From: a virus
DNA: 64,000 nt
Direction: 5' to 3' (one strand)
Virus record (IMG/VR): IMGVR_UViG_3300024346_000012
Position 1 is the stretch's first letter, and every line of letters starts with the position of its first letter. Under the pieces are notes generated by a model. It made no database searches. It was not told the DNA's origin and worked only from the letters and a program-made list of their open reading frames with translations. The position numbers and the translations under genes were made by a program. Positions 5,587 through 39,702 of this stretch are shown here, piece by piece.

Positions 5587-5841
5587 TTACTTGCCTCTTA
5601 CTTTCGCTGCTAGATCTTTGTCTGCTTTTCCCCATGTACCAGATGATTTGGTAACAAATGAATTTACTCTTGCAAAACCCCATTGCTGTGGAGTCGTACC
5701 AGGTCTATGACCGGTTTTCCATGCGGCCACACCTCTATTATAAACTGAACGAAGAACGCTCAATGGCATTCCTGATTTCTCGGCTTTTTTCTTTAAACCA
5801 GCCGTTGCATCTTCTGCAATGTATGCGCCGAATCTAACCAT
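5587..5841 (-). CDS. DUF5824-like protein (C-terminal half)
   Basis: VYNRGVAAWKTGHRPG and QWGFARVNSF motifs; MVRFGAYIAE start. Confidence 0.65.
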   Translation of the reverse strand: MVRFGAYIAEDATAGLKKKAEKSGMPLSVLRSVYNRGVAAWKTGHRPGTTPQQWGFARVNSFVTKSSGTWGKADKDLAAKVRGK

Positions 5842-7303
5842 TCTTAGGCCCTTTCATTGGCTTTTGCTTTAAGTATTCTGCTCTAGAGATCGGAGGCCCG
5901 CCATATTCTTTCATATTAGCTACCTTTACATCTTTTAAGCGTGCACGGTCTAGCATTCTATCGTGTTTCTTTTTATCAGCTTCTTTTTCTCTACTTATCT
6001 TATCTTTAGCTGCTGTAGTGGCTAAAGATTCACCAAACATTTTTCTAAATTTTAGAGTGTGTTTTGAAGTTTTTGTTTTAGCTGTGGCGTCACCTGCTGC
6101 AGGTTTGTATGCACCTGGATCTTTATCAGACATATTAGCTTGTTTTTTAAACTGCCTGTCTCTAGATATTTTTTGAGCTTTACTCAAACCTACATGATAT
6201 TTTTTAGGCTGAGAACCTGGCCGATCTTTTATATCTTGGTCTTGAGACTCTTTTGGTACGCAATTAGGAACCATCTTGTTTCCCTTCTTCTTCGTACCAA
6301 TTTGTTTATGAGTATCCCAACAAGCTTCGTCGGCTTGGCCTGGAGTCATTGCTTTTGCTTTGGTTACAGACTCGGGTGTCCCCCAATCTGGCTGACGTTC
6401 TTCACTAATCATATTTCTGTACGGACCATCTTCGGGTGTCGCGCCAAAATCTGCAGTAGCGTGTTTAGGGGGAATATCGTTCGGGTTAACTTTAGATACG
6501 TCATTTAACCAACATCTCCAGGTCTCACCCTTCGATTCGATGATTAAATAATTAGTGCCAAGATACTTAATATTTCCAACAATACCGTTTCTTGTCATTA
6601 CCACTTCTTCGCCAGTTTTGAATATATCATCTCTAAGATATGCTTCTCTTATGTCTGATACAGGATCTAACTGAATATGGTTTTTAAACTCTTTGGCCTC
6701 TTTTAAGCCCATCCCTTTACGTACATCATTAAATAACTTTTTAGCTTCTGGATTAGACATAGCCTTTGGAAGACCTTGCGCAAATGAAACAAAATCATCT
6801 TCACTTGCTGCATGCCTTTGCTTAGTAGCAGAAGCGCCTTCTGCCCCTTCAGCGTCTGGATCTCTTTGTCCGGCCGATACTATATCAATTTTATTGAAGT
6901 TATAAAAACCATGCCTACCCTTTTTACCGTTATACTTATTTAATAGTATATCAAATTCTGAAAGTCTATCTGCGCCAACGACGACAGAAACATTACGGTA
7001 GCCTTCATCATAAAGTGTTGCCAAAACATCAATAATAGTTTTTACTTTTTTATTTGATACAATAGATCTAGCATGCTTAGGAAACATTTTTCTAGCATGT
7101 TTTATTTTATCTTTATATTGTAATGGGTTTTTTTTCTTATCTTGCGATTGAGATACATACACACGATAAGGACTACGTCCTGCTTTCGAGGCAAGAGCAT
7201 CTAGTAATTTTCCATGGCCAATAGTAGGAGGATTCATTCTACCAAACGTAAAATAAATAGACTTTTCTTCTTCAACAAGAAATTGGCTAAACTTATTAAT
7301 CAT
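5834..7303 (-). CDS. HIGH-superfamily nucleotidyltransferase (phage cytidylyltransferase-like) with C-terminal accessory modules
   Basis: FTFGRMNPPTIGH, KNPL, VVVGADR and SAT motifs; MINKFSQFLVEE start. Confidence 0.75.
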   Translation of the reverse strand: MINKFSQFLVEEEKSIYFTFGRMNPPTIGHGKLLDALASKAGRSPYRVYVSQSQDKKKNPLQYKDKIKHARKMFPKHARSIVSNKKVKTIIDVLATLYDEGYRNVSVVVGADRLSEFDILLNKYNGKKGRHGFYNFNKIDIVSAGQRDPDAEGAEGASATKQRHAASEDDFVSFAQGLPKAMSNPEAKKLFNDVRKGMGLKEAKEFKNHIQLDPVSDIREAYLRDDIFKTGEEVVMTRNGIVGNIKYLGTNYLIIESKGETWRCWLNDVSKVNPNDIPPKHATADFGATPEDGPYRNMISEERQPDWGTPESVTKAKAMTPGQADEACWDTHKQIGTKKKGNKMVPNCVPKESQDQDIKDRPGSQPKKYHVGLSKAQKISRDRQFKKQANMSDKDPGAYKPAAGDATAKTKTSKHTLKFRKMFGESLATTAAKDKISREKEADKKKHDRMLDRARLKDVKVANMKEYGGPPISRAEYLKQKPMKGPKNG

Positions 7304-16710: not shown

Positions 16711-17103
16711 TCAGAAGGCGAAAGTAGCACCTACTTTAGTAGCTACATTGTCTGATGCGTCAAAATCCCAAGTTGTTTCACCGAACAACTCAAAGCCGCC
16801 AAACACTTCATATGTGGCACCAAGATTGACTTTTGGGTCGTCAAACGCGTTGCTCAATTGAAACTCTTCATTGTTATAAACTGGCAAGTCCATATCAGCT
16901 GACAAGCCAATACCGAACATTGAATAACCGATTTCAGGAGTTACCTTTACACCGAAATCATCTACTGCGTTACCTGCAGCATCGTTAATTGTGTATGCTG
17001 CTTCTGATGTTACACCCCAAGTGATGCCTGTTCCACCGATCTCATTGGCTGAGACTGATGTTGCCGTTACTAAAGCGGCTGCTGCGATTGCTGCGATTTT
17101 CAT
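16711..17103 (-). CDS. Small outer-membrane beta-barrel protein
   Basis: Signal peptide; alternating amphipathic strands; C-terminal KVGATFAF beta-signal ending in Phe. Confidence 0.75.
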   Translation of the reverse strand: MKIAAIAAAALVTATSVSANEIGGTGITWGVTSEAAYTINDAAGNAVDDFGVKVTPEIGYSMFGIGLSADMDLPVYNNEEFQLSNAFDDPKVNLGATYEVFGGFELFGETTWDFDASDNVATKVGATFAF

Positions 17104-17140
17104 TTTCTTTTTTCCTAGATTAAATTAAACATTATAAAAG

Positions 17141-17355
17141 TTGCCACTTTTCTGTTGCTAGGTAAGTGGCCAACCCCCTGTGATCATGCCGCTAAGGCAA
17201 ATCCAGATGGTGCAAAATTGTCGTTTGCATTTGTGTTTGTAAACTTGAATACATGTCGATCCTAGTTCAGCCCCATCAGAAATACACCTTATGTACTTGT
17301 GGTGGAGCTGCTCGGTACTGCCCCGAGGTCCATACATCCGTTATTAACGCTTACA
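17141..17355 (-). ncRNA. ssrA: Circularly permuted two-piece tmRNA (alphaproteobacterial type)
   Basis: Acceptor piece about 17355-17300 ending CTCGG-GGCAGTA-CCGAG CAGCTCC-ACCA; 25-nt intervening sequence; coding piece from 17274 (GGGGCTGAACTAGGATCGAC); G3-U70 pair; tag ANDNFAPSGFALAA-stop at 17228-17184; 3' GCAACAGAA motif. Confidence 0.95.
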
Positions 17356-17361
17356 TCTTAT

Positions 17362-17390
17362 ATATTACTTTATAGCCAATACTTTGTACA
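17362..17390 (-). promoter_or_regulatory. Sigma70-like promoter TGTACA-N17-TAATAT for the tmRNA
   Basis: Predicted start near 17355 coincides with the 5' end of the helix-2 strand. Confidence 0.7.
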
Positions 17391-17459
17391 TAGCTTTCAA
17401 CAATGTATCTGTCCTGTGATATAATTATTACACTTCCGTTCTCGGTATAAGCGTAATAC

Positions 17460-17756
17460 TTATTCTTCCTTTTCACTATCGTGGATATAGAGTTGGATGA
17501 GGGCATAGTGGAGAACTTTCATTAAATCTTTACGGGCGTCATCACGACTACCTTTTTTCCCATAACGATTTGAATACTTGTCGACATTTCCCATGCAAAA
17601 ACCTGTGCCATGACCACGTTCAATGATTACTTCTGTTGATTGAAATTTATTTGTGGCGTAATGCCCATCATATGTAGCATCGATATACGCTTGAAACTCA
17701 TTAATCAATGCGCCTTCGTTAAATTTATATTCTACATTACTTATTTCTTTTGCCAT
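17460..17756 (-). CDS. DUF3310-like protein
   Basis: GHY, GFCMGNVDKY, RYGKK and DLMKVLHY motifs. Confidence 0.7.
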   Translation of the reverse strand: MAKEISNVEYKFNEGALINEFQAYIDATYDGHYATNKFQSTEVIIERGHGTGFCMGNVDKYSNRYGKKGSRDDARKDLMKVLHYALIQLYIHDSEKEE

Positions 17757-17926
17757 AATTCAAGCTTCTCCATTATATTTATTCTTTGTTCTTCACTATA
17801 AGAAGACCACTCAGTGATCTCCTGAGAAGTGCGTTTACACCCTATGCACGTACCAGTAAATGCATCAATTTTACATATCTGAGTACAAGGACTAGATGCT
17901 TTTACTAATCCCAAGTGCCGTCCCAC
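17741..17926 (-). CDS. DUF1289 family small Cys protein
   Basis: SPCTQIC and CIGCKRT-x2-EI-x2-W motifs. Confidence 0.8.
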   Translation of the reverse strand: MGRHLGLVKASSPCTQICKIDAFTGTCIGCKRTSQEITEWSSYSEEQRINIMEKLELWQKK

Positions 17927-18390
17927 ACATAAAACACGTGTTTATCAATTATTTTACTTACTTCCATTTGATCTGCCCACACCGGATTCACATACGTAGC
18001 GTGATAAAATGTAGCTCCCTTTGTAGGATCATCTACGTTTCCTATCATCACATCTCTGGCAATAGCCCGAGCTTGCTTCCACGATTTGTTTTCTTTGGGC
18101 GTCTGATCTTTAATCATAAACGTCCAACTAAACTGCTTTGGTTGGTAGACTACATCGCATATACTATTAGGCCATTCCTTATGCTCTACTCTATTCATGG
18201 TAACATGGGCAACAGCGATTTGGCCTTCAATGACCTCGCCGCGAGCCTCGTGATATATATTCATCGCCAAACAATTTTGGCTTTTAGGATCTATATCGGG
18301 TTGACCACCCATAGAAAGAGTTATGACAAGTGCCCCAGTTAGTACTGACATAGTTAATAATCCGCTTGTTATGTTTAAAGTTCTTGACAT
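17905..18390 (-). CDS. Cell wall hydrolase (SleB/Hydrolase_2)
   Basis: CLAMNIYHEARGE, VAHVTMNRV, QFSW, GATFYHA and HVFY motifs; N-terminal TM. Confidence 0.9.
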   Translation of the reverse strand: MSRTLNITSGLLTMSVLTGALVITLSMGGQPDIDPKSQNCLAMNIYHEARGEVIEGQIAVAHVTMNRVEHKEWPNSICDVVYQPKQFSWTFMIKDQTPKENKSWKQARAIARDVMIGNVDDPTKGATFYHATYVNPVWADQMEVSKIIDKHVFYVWDGTWD

Positions 18391-25558: not shown

Positions 25559-26041
25559 TTATCCAAATCTAGCTAAATACTGCGCTATTCGTCCAACAAA
25601 AGGTAGTAGCATAAGAGCCATAAGTAGGTTCATTCCAGTATGTGCCATTGCAATTCGTAGCGTATCACCTTTAGGCATTCCATCAGAGACAAATAAACCA
25701 GCCAGCCATATTGTACCTGTCGTACCAATATTAGCACCAAGAACGCATGCAATAGCTGCAGGCAGCGGTAAAGCACCAGAAGCAACTAATGCAATAATAG
25801 CAGTAGTAGATAGTGAAGATGATTGCCATAGCAATGTCATGATAATTCCACCAAAAAACATATAGATCGGACTACCTAGAAACCAGTTAAGGTGTTCCAT
25901 ATTCCCCATAGATTTCATTCCACCTGAGAATGTCTTAAGTCCAATATAAAAAATGACCAGCCCAACAAGGGCTGTTATCATCGGGTTTCCTAGATCCATT
26001 TTCTTCACCTTTTTCCAAAGTTTTTCACCTTCATTTTTCAT
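25559..26041 (-). CDS. Na+/Pi cotransporter family protein (single repeat)
   Basis: LWQSSSLST and LGANIGTT signature motifs; several TM helices. Confidence 0.85.
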   Translation of the reverse strand: MKNEGEKLWKKVKKMDLGNPMITALVGLVIFYIGLKTFSGGMKSMGNMEHLNWFLGSPIYMFFGGIIMTLLWQSSSLSTTAIIALVASGALPLPAAIACVLGANIGTTGTIWLAGLFVSDGMPKGDTLRIAMAHTGMNLLMALMLLPFVGRIAQYLARFG

Positions 26042-26463
26042 TAGACGATACTCGGCAGATCGCCATGATTGCCTTCGTGTGATGGCCCTTGCCAACCACT
26101 TGGCTTTAGTAAATCGGGCAATCCAAAACGATTAGGGCGACCAGGCTTTACGCCTGGCTCTTTTGCCATATTAGCTTGGTATATAGCATCCCATGCTTTA
26201 TTAGCATCAACACCCATAATATCAAGAGTGCCGATAGCAAATACGCACATATCAATTAGACCATCAACGACTTCCTCTGCATCAGAATTATTAATAGCAG
26301 ACAATGTCTCTTGGTATTCTTCACCGATCATAAGCATACGAAACATGAGATATTTCTGCATAAGATCTTTATTTTCTTTATTGGCTTCAAACCACTCACG
26401 TACGCCGAATTTGTTATGCATCATGTACATGTCATTAGCAAAATCACTCATTTTATTCTCCAT
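26041..26463 (-). CDS. MazG-like all-alpha dNTP pyrophosphatase (possible dCTPase/dUTPase)
   Basis: EEYQE, EVVDGLID, ANMAK and DLLKPSGW motifs. Confidence 0.8.
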   Translation of the reverse strand: MENKMSDFANDMYMMHNKFGVREWFEANKENKDLMQKYLMFRMLMIGEEYQETLSAINNSDAEEVVDGLIDMCVFAIGTLDIMGVDANKAWDAIYQANMAKEPGVKPGRPNRFGLPDLLKPSGWQGPSHEGNHGDLPSIV

Positions 26464-30249: not shown

Positions 30250-31063
30250 GTTGTTCTATTTCCCTTTGGTCTAATTCATATTGAGATCTGTATTCATTAT
30301 TAATTCTAACACATTCTCCTAGTAATGTAAACCCTTTATCTAAATTAAATAACGCGCTTGTATCCTTTGGAAAGCAAGCTCCTCCGTATCCTCGCTTATT
30401 ATCAAGCCCAGGAACTGCAGAATGAGATCTACCTATTCTACTATCCGATGTTATAGCATTCACTATCTTATTATAAGCTGCTTCGTTATTTTCTACTACA
30501 TCATATAGCTGATTAAAAAACAGAACTTTCATAGCTAAGAAAGAGTTAATTCCATATTTTACAAAACTAGCGTCTACCGCAGACATTCGATGTACTGGAC
30601 AAGGTCTACAAAGGCTATATTCTTTATAGTAGAATTCTAGGTTGTCGATAAATCCGTCGTTTCCGCCAAAGATATGCTTATCAGGATTTATGAAATCATC
30701 TATAGCATTCTTTTCTGTTAAAAACTCTGGGTTATATACGATTCTAGTACCGCCCGAACCTACTACGAGTTTTTTAATTATATCAGGAGTTACCGTAGAT
30801 TTGATAACAATTATTCCGGACATTCGTTCTTTTAGCTCTTTAACTGTATCTACCAGAATGGTGGAATCTATAGAACCGTCTTTATTCATAGGAGTTGGTA
30901 CACAAACAAACGTTATATTTTCTTCTAGATTAACGTCCTTTAAACTGTTATAGCAGGTTTTACCGTATTTAGGATCAACAATTTGCATTCTTACTTTAGG
31001 AGTTCTAAATCCATACTCTACAGCTCTACCCACAAAACCATAGCCAACTATAGTTATTTTCAT
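30215..31063 (-). CDS. UDP-glucose/GDP-mannose dehydrogenase family protein
   Basis: GYGFVG, CVPTP, KSTV, NPEFL and GYGGACFPKD motifs. Confidence 0.9.
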   Translation of the reverse strand: MKITIVGYGFVGRAVEYGFRTPKVRMQIVDPKYGKTCYNSLKDVNLEENITFVCVPTPMNKDGSIDSTILVDTVKELKERMSGIIVIKSTVTPDIIKKLVVGSGGTRIVYNPEFLTEKNAIDDFINPDKHIFGGNDGFIDNLEFYYKEYSLCRPCPVHRMSAVDASFVKYGINSFLAMKVLFFNQLYDVVENNEAAYNKIVNAITSDSRIGRSHSAVPGLDNKRGYGGACFPKDTSALFNLDKGFTLLGECVRINNEYRSQYELDQREIEQHVDYGQTEEKQ

Positions 31064-31497
31064 GTAAGACCTCCAATGTCTTTTTTAAGTTCTTCTCCAT
31101 ACACTCTATCGCGTAAATCGCTAGTGGAGAATCTATGGTCTCTTTTATTAAAATAAATTTCTATTCCTCGGGCAGAGCAAGTAGCTCTTCCAGTAAATTT
31201 TCCGTCTTTATATTCTTGACCTATAATTCTAACATCTATATCAAACATTTTTAAAATATCTTCTATGTCTGTTTCGGTCTCATAGGGTATAATTTCATTT
31301 ACATATTTTACAGCTTGTAGTTGCATCCATCTTTCTACTAGTGTTTGAACTGGTGTGTTTTTTTCAGATCTTTCCGCGGCAGGATTTACTTGTAAACCAC
31401 AGATTAGATAATCACATTGATTTTTTGCTTCTCTTAGCATAGCGATATGACCTGCGTGTAACAAATCAAAAGTGCTAAATGTTATTCCTATAGCCAT
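31060..31497 (-). CDS. TagD-like cytidylyltransferase
   Basis: STFDLLHAGH and RDHRFSTS motifs. Confidence 0.85.
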   Translation of the reverse strand: MAIGITFSTFDLLHAGHIAMLREAKNQCDYLICGLQVNPAAERSEKNTPVQTLVERWMQLQAVKYVNEIIPYETETDIEDILKMFDIDVRIIGQEYKDGKFTGRATCSARGIEIYFNKRDHRFSTSDLRDRVYGEELKKDIGGLT

Positions 31498-31530
31498 AGC
31501 TCTTTTAAGACCTTCCATGTTGCTTGCCAA

Positions 31531-38972: not shown

Positions 38973-39226
38973 TAGACCCATCCTCGCAAATTTTTGTTTG
39001 CTTTGACGTGTGATATTGACGATTTTAATCGAGCAACATCATAGATGTCACCTCGACATAGACCAATGTCTGCTAAGTCATAGTCAGATAGGTTGCCTAA
39101 AGCTTTTTCAGTTTCACGAATTGCTTTACGTTCAATCCGATTATTGTAAACACTTTTCAGCGTTTCAATGATTAGTTCAAGTGCTTTCGTTGAGTAGCTG
39201 TGCGCTACTAGTATTGCTTGTGTCAT
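38972..39226 (-). CDS. DUF1127 family small protein
   Basis: TEKALGNLSDYDLADIGLCRGDI signature; start MTQAIL after GAGG RBS. Confidence 0.85.
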   Translation of the reverse strand: MTQAILVAHSYSTKALELIIETLKSVYNNRIERKAIRETEKALGNLSDYDLADIGLCRGDIYDVARLKSSISHVKANKNLRGWV

Positions 39227-39647
39227 TTTGTTTCCTCGTTTGACCAATATTGATTTTACGAGGACGCATTTCTTCTGGAATGACATACTGCAATTCAATT
39301 GCCAGAATACCATCCTGAATATCTGCTCCGTTTACATTTACATGTTCGGACAGCCTAAAGGTTCGTTTAAATTTCTTTGTCGAAATGCCACGATGGATAA
39401 ACTCTCTACCTTTAGAGACGTGCTCTCCCTTTACTGTTAAAGTCCTGTCTTTGACTTCAATATTAATTTCATCCTTTGAAAACCCCGCAATAGCAAGTTC
39501 AATCAGATAATCAGATTCTGATGTCTTAATAATGTTATGTGGGGGATAGTGGTCTTGAGCATGTTTTGCAGTGAACTCTAGTTCATTAAACAAATGGTCA
39601 AAACCAACAAAAGATGAACGCGGGAAAAGTGTTTGTAAGCCTGTCAT
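39177..39647 (-). CDS. hsp20: Small heat-shock protein Hsp20 (IbpA-like)
   Basis: VGFD, YPPHNI, IELAIAGF, HRGIS, DGIL and PEEMRPRKINI motifs. Confidence 0.95.
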   Translation of the reverse strand: MTGLQTLFPRSSFVGFDHLFNELEFTAKHAQDHYPPHNIIKTSESDYLIELAIAGFSKDEINIEVKDRTLTVKGEHVSKGREFIHRGISTKKFKRTFRLSEHVNVNGADIQDGILAIELQYVIPEEMRPRKINIGQTRKQNDTSNTSSAQLLNEST

Positions 39648-39652
39648 TGTTA

Positions 39653-39702
39653 TCTCCTTTTGAGCAAGCAAGATTAAAAATGGACCCAGTTAACTGGCAT
39701 CC
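39653..39702 (-). promoter_or_regulatory. ROSE-like RNA thermometer in the hsp20 leader
   Basis: UCUUGCUU pairs with the SD AAGGAGA with a bulged G; upstream hairpin GGATGCCAG-TTAA-CTGGGTCC. Confidence 0.75.

Follow-up and report, generated by a model that had tools for sequence, protein, structure and literature searches.

Nearly all tag-encoding tmRNAs carry a pseudoknot, PK1, that separates helix 2 from the resume codon; the Rfam models do not require it. A two-piece tmRNA of Caulobacter was reportedly described by Keiler and co-workers in 2000. Among phages, a two-piece alpha-type tmRNA is known from Melnitz, where a glutamine riboswitch and an early promoter accompany it (Buchholz et al. 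2022, PMC9004378), and permuted tmRNAs were noted in related pelagimyophage contigs using ARAGORN (PMC9004378). In Escherichia coli, the resume codon lies 12 nt past PK1, behind a run of A's (PMC2481249). There, tagging is not lost when a hairpin takes the place of PK1, which is thought mainly to prevent misfolding (PMC3968760). As cited in that review, the E. coli tmRNAs of Tanner et al. 2006 and Wower et al. 2009 have PK1 converted to a hairpin or a single strand (PMC3968760). Reduction of another kind is found in CDS-less mitochondrial and plastid tmRNAs and in mycobacteriophage DS6A, whose TLD-only RNA is reported to act as an inhibitor of tmRNA, perhaps through SmpB titration (PMC4131195, PMC11915505). 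It is already known that phages have two-piece tmRNAs and that PK1 can be dispensed with in the laboratory. We found no description of PK1-less phage tmRNAs in the literature searched, and a natural, widespread, virus-specific tmRNA of this kind seems to be undescribed in print.

The DNA analysed here is a 64-kb stretch, referred to below as the window. It contains a two-piece (circularly permuted, alpha-type) tmRNA gene on the minus strand, at 17355-17139. An Rfam scan matched the gene over the full model length, both with RF04321 (tmRNA_permuted; 83 bits, gathering score 47) and with RF01849 (alpha_tmRNA; 74.7 bits, gathering score 50; 256 nt). Infernal with the alpha_tmRNA model was one of the checks proposed in an initial annotation of the DNA. 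The other program proposed there, ARAGORN, reported no tmRNA gene when run on the whole window, which we read as a failure of the detector and not as absence of the gene. All the sequence elements named in that annotation were located by reading the minus strand, and its description of a circularly permuted RNA of about 190 nt holds. Sequence, Rfam alignment and minimum free energy (MFE) fold agree on the permuted order, CCA (17302-17300), a 25-nt segment, then GGGG from 17274. The MFE fold of the precursor reproduces P2b, P2a, the T arm, the acceptor stem and the intervening hairpin (z = -3.0). An attP-type tmRNA fragment from an integrating phage was ruled out because both pieces and the complete tag are present, and a 59-aa ORF that overlaps the tmRNA (17158-17337) is regarded as spurious.

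The acceptor piece (56 nt, 17300-17355, minus strand as are all parts of the gene) is delimited by sequence, Rfam alignments, MFE fold and covariation, with a predicted 5' end. It opens with the 5' strand of P2b (UGUAAGC, 17355-17349), which pairs with GUUUACA at 17244-17238, and continues with an asymmetric 9-nt loop, GUUAAUAAC (17348-17340), the 5' strand of P2a, GGAUGUAUG (17339-17331), which pairs with CAUGUAUUC at 17255-17247, and a linker GAC. The T arm, CUCGG-GGCAGUA-CCGAG (17327-17311), has 5 bp and the T-loop GGCAGUA. The acceptor 3' strand CAGCUCC (17310-17304) pairs with GGGGCUG (17274-17268) in a stem of 7 bp that includes G3:U70, and is followed by the discriminator A and the encoded CCA. 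The 25-nt intervening segment (17275-17299) is presumed to be excised; in the MFE fold of the precursor it forms a hairpin that prolongs the acceptor stem.

The coding piece begins at G17274, to which its 5' end in the initial annotation was corrected. Its 5' part (17229-17274), devoid of PK1, consists of the acceptor 5' strand, a D-loop-like AACUAGGAUCGA, the P2a 3' strand, AA, the P2b 3' strand, and an A-rich 9-nt spacer, AACACAAAU (17237-17229), between helix 2 and the resume codon. Helix 2 is shortened to 9 bp (P2a) and 7 bp (P2b), and only 46 nt lie between the mature 5' end and the resume codon. The tag frame (17184-17228) has 14 codons, encoding ANDNFAPSGFALAA, with GCA as resume codon (17228-17226) and UGA as stop (17186-17184). 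Downstream, an H-type pseudoknot region (17139-17183), detected by covariation, matches the 3' end of the RF01849 consensus (positions ~320-355, at high posterior probability). The 3' module had initially been described as GCCACUU...AAGUGGC; this helix is present (S2, 17170-17164 with 17149-17143, seen in the stem variants of relatives), but it is only half of the pseudoknot, in which covariation identifies GGGU (17176-17173) and ACCU (17163-17160) as a further stem, S1. The conserved pseudoknot loop AGCAACAGAA (17159-17150) holds an AACAGAA element, and a short tail, AACU, follows S2.

The window covers part of the genome of a T4-like myophage, a distant relative of Pelagibacter phage HTVC008M and Methylophilales phage Melnitz. 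Of its 87 ORFs, 84 lie on the minus strand, and PHROG matches include a T4-type major head protein, portal, tail sheath, large terminase, DNA polymerase, a DnaB-like helicase and an SbcC-like nuclease. At the level of the major capsid protein, identity is 65% to Phage C48C1 and about 59% to HTVC008M and the Melnitz isolates. The tmRNA gene lies downstream of genes for a cell-wall hydrolase (17905-18390) and a DUF3310 protein (17460-17756), and T4-type phage genes stand on both sides of it on the same strand. The gene is phage-borne, as had been claimed, given the T4-type capsid, portal, sheath, terminase and DNA polymerase genes in the same window; the phage-borne two-piece form was already published for the same phage group (PMC9004378). 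Since the tmRNAs of Melnitz and HTVC008M are in print, the question is the reduction, not the permutation or the phage origin.

Rfam recovers a tmRNA in Melnitz and in HTVC008M; none was found with Rfam in C48C1. Both genes resemble that of the window in being permuted and alpha-type, in belonging to marine T4-like myophages of the same broad group, and in their TLD, AN... tag start, ALAA end and AACAGAA 3' pseudoknot. They differ in that the distance from 5' end to resume codon is 82 nt in Melnitz and 75 nt in HTVC008M, both with a PK1-like region, compared to 46 nt and no such region in the window. Moreover, Melnitz has a strong TTGACA/TATAAA promoter and, just downstream, a glutamine riboswitch, whereas the window has neither, and no blastn-level similarity was found between the window gene and the Melnitz or HTVC008M genes. 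The Melnitz riboswitch (L004, 1886-1934, 52.8 bits) has no counterpart in the window, where an Rfam scan at the gathering scores, covering the full 64 kb, yielded nothing beyond the two tmRNA matches.

With the alphaproteobacterial tmRNAs of RF01849, the window gene shares the gene order, a T-loop GGCNGUA, G3:U70, a D-loop-like GANNUAGGNUCGAC, an ANDN tag start, and a 3' pseudoknot with a GCAACAGAA loop. The cellular alpha tmRNAs, however, score 123-313 bits over at least 283 nt of the model, compared to 74.7 bits over 256 nt in the window; their helix 2 is longer by about 10 nt per strand, and they keep a canonical PK1 (for instance CGGUAUUGUACCACCGUUAUCGG in SAR11), which the window gene does not. 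Its tag, ANDNFAPSGFALAA, also differs from the SAR11 tags ANDELALAA and ANESYAIAA. The engineered E. coli tmRNAs likewise have no PK1 before the linker and keep an A-rich linker with the -4 A; these, however, are one-piece laboratory constructs with a full helix 2 and PK2-PK4, whereas the window form is natural, two-piece and evolutionarily maintained, with a short helix 2 and a single pseudoknot. The DS6A RNA, also phage-borne, and the CDS-less organellar RNAs are similarly reduced, but have no tag frame, whereas the window gene keeps its 14-codon tag and frame-setting context.

The window gene is not a one-off oddity: PK1-less phage tmRNAs form a large family, of which it is one member. IMG/VR was scanned with two patterns, which differed only in the allowed distance between GAC and UGCAAAC and yielded at least 118 and at least 120 contigs. 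tmRNA genes were called in the contigs by T arm and acceptor-stem complementarity, and the distance from 5' end to resume codon was recorded. The loci on viral contigs, among the IMG/VR matches listed, were assigned to class A (46-50 nt, at least 78 loci), class B (53-59 nt, at least 32), class C (61-68 nt, at least 15) and class D (77-88 nt, at least 96), these counts being lower bounds whose proportions carry no meaning. At 46 nt, the window gene stands at the extreme of its class range among the matches listed. Class B has a full-length helix 2, yet no PK1; in class A, besides PK1, about 10 nt per strand of helix 2 are gone. At least 68 distinct class-A variants (46-50 nt) are present in IMG/VR. 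Their intervening segment ranges from 5 to 369 nt among relatives, with conserved flanking parts; the long ones (short-class L019, L022, L029, L090, L105, L115, L123 and others) may carry inserted elements.

Selection on structure was assessed on alignment A1, made of 24 of the 68 distinct class-A sequences. In A1, 87.4% of cells were paired, compared to 36 to 49% when the partners were slid by 1-3 columns, and compensatory changes were found in 21 of 39 pairs. Taken with the Rfam scores and the MFE fold, this goes well past what chance would produce. The T arm, with three covarying pairs, and the acceptor stem were paired throughout (100%), and G3:U70 was invariant in 24/24 sequences while neighbouring acceptor pairs, such as 2:71, covaried. 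Pairing reached 91% in P2b (three covarying pairs), 71% in P2a on the MAFFT alignment (four covarying pairs) and 99% in S1 (two covarying pairs), where the variants GGGU/ACCU, GAGC/GCUU, GGGC/GCCU and GGCG/UGCC occur. In S2, at least 5 bp form in 67/68 relatives; its strands match perfectly in at least 20 different versions, while the AACAGAA loop that they enclose is conserved. RNAalifold, applied to the relatives, recovers P2b, part of P2a, the T arm, the acceptor stem and S1.

The tag is conserved as a protein. Its frame is intact in 68/68 class-A relatives while the codons drift synonymously, and the terminal Ala-Leu-Ala-Ala is kept through all four GCN codons and CTA, TTA and CTC. All three stop codons are used, TAA by 53 and TAG by 14 of the class-A tags, UGA by the window alone (1/68). 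Upstream of the resume codon, the spacer of the 68 sequences is A-rich, with an A at -4 and U or C at -5 in 68/68, and a U at -1. The E. coli counterparts of the -4 and -5 nucleotides are A86 and U85; A86 is essential for frame choice, and the change U85C is tolerated (PMC2481249). The mini form thus looks like a helix 2 fused directly to the A-rich linker known from E. coli.

The claim that PK1 has no space was borne out, with only 9 A-rich nucleotides after helix 2. A substitute for PK1 was also considered and ruled out: when all columns of the mature RNA were scanned in the 68 sequences, no covarying partner was found for any spacer column, the only coincidences being one-sided (U/C opposite G) and forming no helix.

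Some local foldings were noted along the way. RNAalifold proposes a candidate 6-bp hairpin, UGCAAA-CGACAAU-UUUGCA (17229-17211, minus strand), that contains the resume codon. It is sequence-invariant in most of the 24 relatives, so that covariation is silent either way; its pairing may simply follow from the codons for ANDNFA, and it could affect how accessible the resume codon is. The loop GUUAAUAAC, with the flanking C and G, may form a tiny hairpin, CGUU-AAU-AACG (17348-17340, minus strand), and a 5-bp hairpin, CGUUG-AAG-CAACG, is found at the matching place in three syntenic, PK1-bearing loci (L213, L146 and L233). With such hairpins, helix 2 would be a three-way junction in the window's lineage.

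To what extent are short forms found in cells? One genome for each of 185,579 species was scanned with a short-distance pattern, which recognises only about 40% of cellular alpha tmRNAs. Of the 10 places it matched, four hold genuine short tmRNAs, each carried by a contig of 6-19 kb in marine-looking metagenome-assembled genomes (MAGs) labelled Verrucomicrobiales, Opitutia and Rhodobacteraceae. One of these bins (G001, labelled Rhodobacteraceae) has eight alpha_tmRNA matches, one at 284 bits and seven at 31-114 bits on small contigs; a single cell-like score among eight indicates phage contigs in the bin. Together with G002 and G003, it illustrates how phage contigs are binned with a bacterial genome, so that phage tmRNAs could pass as bacterial.

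Infernal was also run on 151 alphaproteobacterial genomes sampled across the class (including the unpublished G043, which was counted but contributed no sequence). A match was obtained in 148, and every score in the range of cellular ssrA (at least 123 bits) spans at least 283 nt. For 42 of 44 alphaproteobacterial tmRNAs, the resume codon lies 82-103 nt from the 5' end; one has 127 nt, and another was called at 72 nt with a doubtful tag start. The 1.3-Mb genome G392 contains an exact match to what we take to be the sequence of the SAR11-441R probe, and on this basis its order is treated as the SAR11 order. In all 41 genomes sampled from that order, Infernal finds one tmRNA, of 293-302 nt and 210-244 bits, and all 29 SAR11-order tmRNAs analysed have 82-84 nt to the resume codon, a canonical PK1 and 9-residue tags such as ANDELALAA. 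The initial annotation was therefore right that alphaproteobacterial tmRNAs keep PK1, those of the SAR11 order included, with nearly all at 82 nt or more; equally short tmRNAs in likely hosts, which it had named as a possible refutation, did not appear among the tmRNAs searched (44 alphaproteobacterial and 29 of the SAR11 order). The short class is found almost only in viral DNA and seems confined there. A blastn search of 50,697 phage records gave no match at 1e-5 and two short ones at E = 1, one of which, PQ867850, had no Rfam tmRNA match; no named isolate with the short form was thus found.

The origin of the short form can be approached through its neighbourhood. The DUF3310 gene adjoins the tmRNA in 59/84 class-A loci, and the hydrolase gene does so in 48/84 class-A and 29/100 class-D loci. 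In the class-D loci L213, L146 and L233, neighbour proteins are 82-86% identical to those of the window, the tag is the same or nearly so and the 3' pseudoknot is the same, and PK1 is kept. When these three were aligned with the window type (alignment A2), the latter was seen to differ mainly in having no counterpart of a 36-nt block of the coding piece, which covers the middle of helix 2 and the roughly 25 nt of PK1, and in a 7-nt gap in the acceptor piece. Since syntenic relatives with the same tag keep PK1, the mini form descends from a phage allele that had PK1 at this locus and was shortened, within phage lineages, by internal deletions.

Concerning expression, the phage of the window uses T4-type late promoters: 12 intergenic copies of TATAAATA lie on the minus strand of the window, 5-520 nt (mostly 21-63 nt) upstream of ORFs. 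Among relatives, TATAAATA is found at a fixed offset before the T arm in 30/69 class-A loci (30-31 nt) and in 54/95 class-D loci (38-41 nt), which suggests late expression, with a transcript starting at the acceptor piece. This canonical motif was not found before the window tmRNA. The putative promoter region there (17356-17394, minus strand) holds a weak sigma-70-like UGUACA-N17-UAAUAU, and a TATATAAG motif lies just upstream of the acceptor piece, in the place taken by TATAAATA in many relatives; a promoter scan of 17356-17394 gave nothing on the minus strand, and the first 40 positions of RF01849 align to this region only at low posterior probability.

The gene is confirmed as genuine and is probably functional, and, judging from sequence comparison, it would stand for a miniaturised, PK1-less, virus-restricted class. 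We hold it for quite probable that it is a functional, phage-encoded, miniaturised two-piece tmRNA of alpha type, derived by deletions from a PK1-bearing phage allele. Its most likely function, as we infer it, is trans-translation with the SmpB, alanyl-tRNA synthetase (AlaRS) and EF-Tu of the host. The more specific roles put forward in the initial annotation, keeping rescue going under toxin attack, standing in for destroyed host tmRNA or titrating SmpB, are conjectural. A search for SmpB in 20 window ORFs, which took in the neighbours and every ORF of a size expected for SmpB, found none, and host SmpB, AlaRS, EF-Tu and processing enzymes are therefore presumed. A single precursor would be transcribed, from which host tRNA-processing enzymes would excise the 25-nt intervening hairpin, with RNase P acting at G17274 and the 3' end being trimmed to CCA. 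The products would be two pieces, the acceptor one of 56 nt and the coding one of about 134 nt, joined by the acceptor stem and the short helix 2. Host alanyl-tRNA synthetase would charge the RNA by way of G3:U70, and with host SmpB and EF-Tu it would enter stalled ribosomes, where translation would resume at GCA, positioned by the -4 A and the -5 U/C, and add the degradation tag ANDNFAPSGFALAA, which ends in ALAA. PK1 being absent, helix 2 would run into the A-rich linker, and the sole pseudoknot would be the alpha-type one after the stop codon.

The conservation of G3:U70, of the frame-setting nucleotides and of Ala-Leu-Ala-Ala argues that the RNA is charged and the tag translated. A tmRNA without PK1 is mechanistically plausible, by analogy with E. 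coli, where a hairpin can replace it. Several points count against this explanation. A short helix 2 and a 9-nt linker may not easily reach the decoding centre, and a possible hairpin, UGCAAA-N7-UUUGCA, would sequester the resume codon. The canonical upstream promoter is missing in the window, no SmpB was found among the 20 ORFs scanned, which implies reliance on the host protein, and the tag differs from those of SAR11.

The same conservation disfavours both a pure SmpB decoy and a relic. As a decoy, the RNA would bind host SmpB or enter ribosomes without productive tagging, thereby shutting down or diverting host trans-translation, as proposed for DS6A. The loss of PK1 and half of helix 2 would fit such a role, as would the SmpB-free set of scanned ORFs and the inhibition of tmRNA, perhaps by SmpB titration, reported for a TLD-only RNA (PMC4131195, PMC11915505). 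A decoy would have no use for a tag, yet the frame is intact in 68/68 sequences, with synonymous drift and the ALAA end; the -4 A is invariant as well, and the 3' pseudoknot is maintained by covariation. We therefore consider the decoy improbable. Even less probability is given to the view that the gene is a relic, left from the capture of a host or phage tmRNA gene, that no longer functions and is decaying. Signs of decay could be seen in the two internal deletions that set it apart from its syntenic, PK1-bearing relatives, in an Rfam score (about 75 bits) that is low compared to cellular tmRNAs (210-313 bits), and in the failure of ARAGORN to recognise it, but a relic would gather helix-breaking and frame-breaking changes, and this is contradicted by the covariation: among at least 68 diverged sequences the reduced architecture persists, each helix shows compensatory changes and the tag stays intact.

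The four short copies in contigs binned to Verrucomicrobiales, Opitutia and Rhodobacteraceae MAGs could also be taken to mean that the window gene is a functional cellular tmRNA on a chimeric or mis-assigned contig. The window tmRNA is flanked on both sides by T4-type phage genes on the same strand, however, and the MAG copies reside on contigs of only 6-19 kb, in one case in a bin (G001) with eight matches of which one is cell-like (284 bits). Furthermore, a pattern that is about 40% sensitive for cellular alpha tmRNAs found only four real cases among its 10 matches in 185,579 species genomes, and none of the 44 alphaproteobacterial and 29 SAR11-order tmRNAs is short. A cellular origin is thus very unlikely, to the same degree as the relic. 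As for the broader proposal, that marine T4-like phages evolved and selectively maintain a virus-specific, tag-encoding tmRNA class in which a halved helix 2 is joined directly to the resume-codon linker, we lean towards it, though by a small margin of belief.

If this proposal is true, trans-translation in a natural setting needs neither PK1 nor a full-length helix 2, and RNAs of about 190 nt in two pieces are among the smallest natural tag-encoding tmRNAs. The T4-type late promoters of many relatives would then imply a dedicated role late in infection, for example the clearing of ribosomes stalled on degraded host or phage messages. Viral confinement and late motifs together would point to phage-specific ribosome rescue during infection of abundant marine bacteria. 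The family amounts to a natural test of the minimal tmRNA, with dozens of diverged sequences that keep G3:U70, the -4 A and the ALAA degron although they have no PK1 and a shortened helix 2, and the short tmRNAs offer a ready minimal scaffold for structural and mechanistic study of resume-codon placement.

A practical consequence concerns detection. On locus slices, ARAGORN reported 7/85 class-A, 20/36 class-B, 14/16 class-C and 75/104 class-D loci, compared to 35/43 cellular ones. The 2025 tmRNA database holds only 79 bacteriophage sequences, from RefSeq viruses (PMC11915505). The yield of 7/85 means that ARAGORN-based counts of phage tmRNAs are too low, and exactly so for class A. Conversely, a short copy in a MAG bin can be taken for the ssrA gene of a bacterium.

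Finally, some observations were made on tags and on neighbouring genes. Some phage tmRNAs appear to have unusually long tags (L035 and L118; L010, L114, L014 and L038), one of them, ANDNVAQPKFMKKRNTFARKVGFTKGMALAA, with 31 residues. Other tags of 25-30 residues hold an internal ANDN, and their true resume codon may be further downstream. Directly downstream of the window tmRNA, on the minus strand, lies a 130-aa ORF (16711-17103) whose N-terminus is hydrophobic and signal-like; it matched no family in Pfam or PHROG, and it is conserved in place at 16 class-A and five class-D loci. Possible auxiliary genes of the window, at 25559-26095, 39177-39671, 5834-7303 and 31060-31530, include an ORF with a Na/Pi-cotransporter domain (178 aa), an Hsp20-family protein and two cytidylyltransferase-like proteins.
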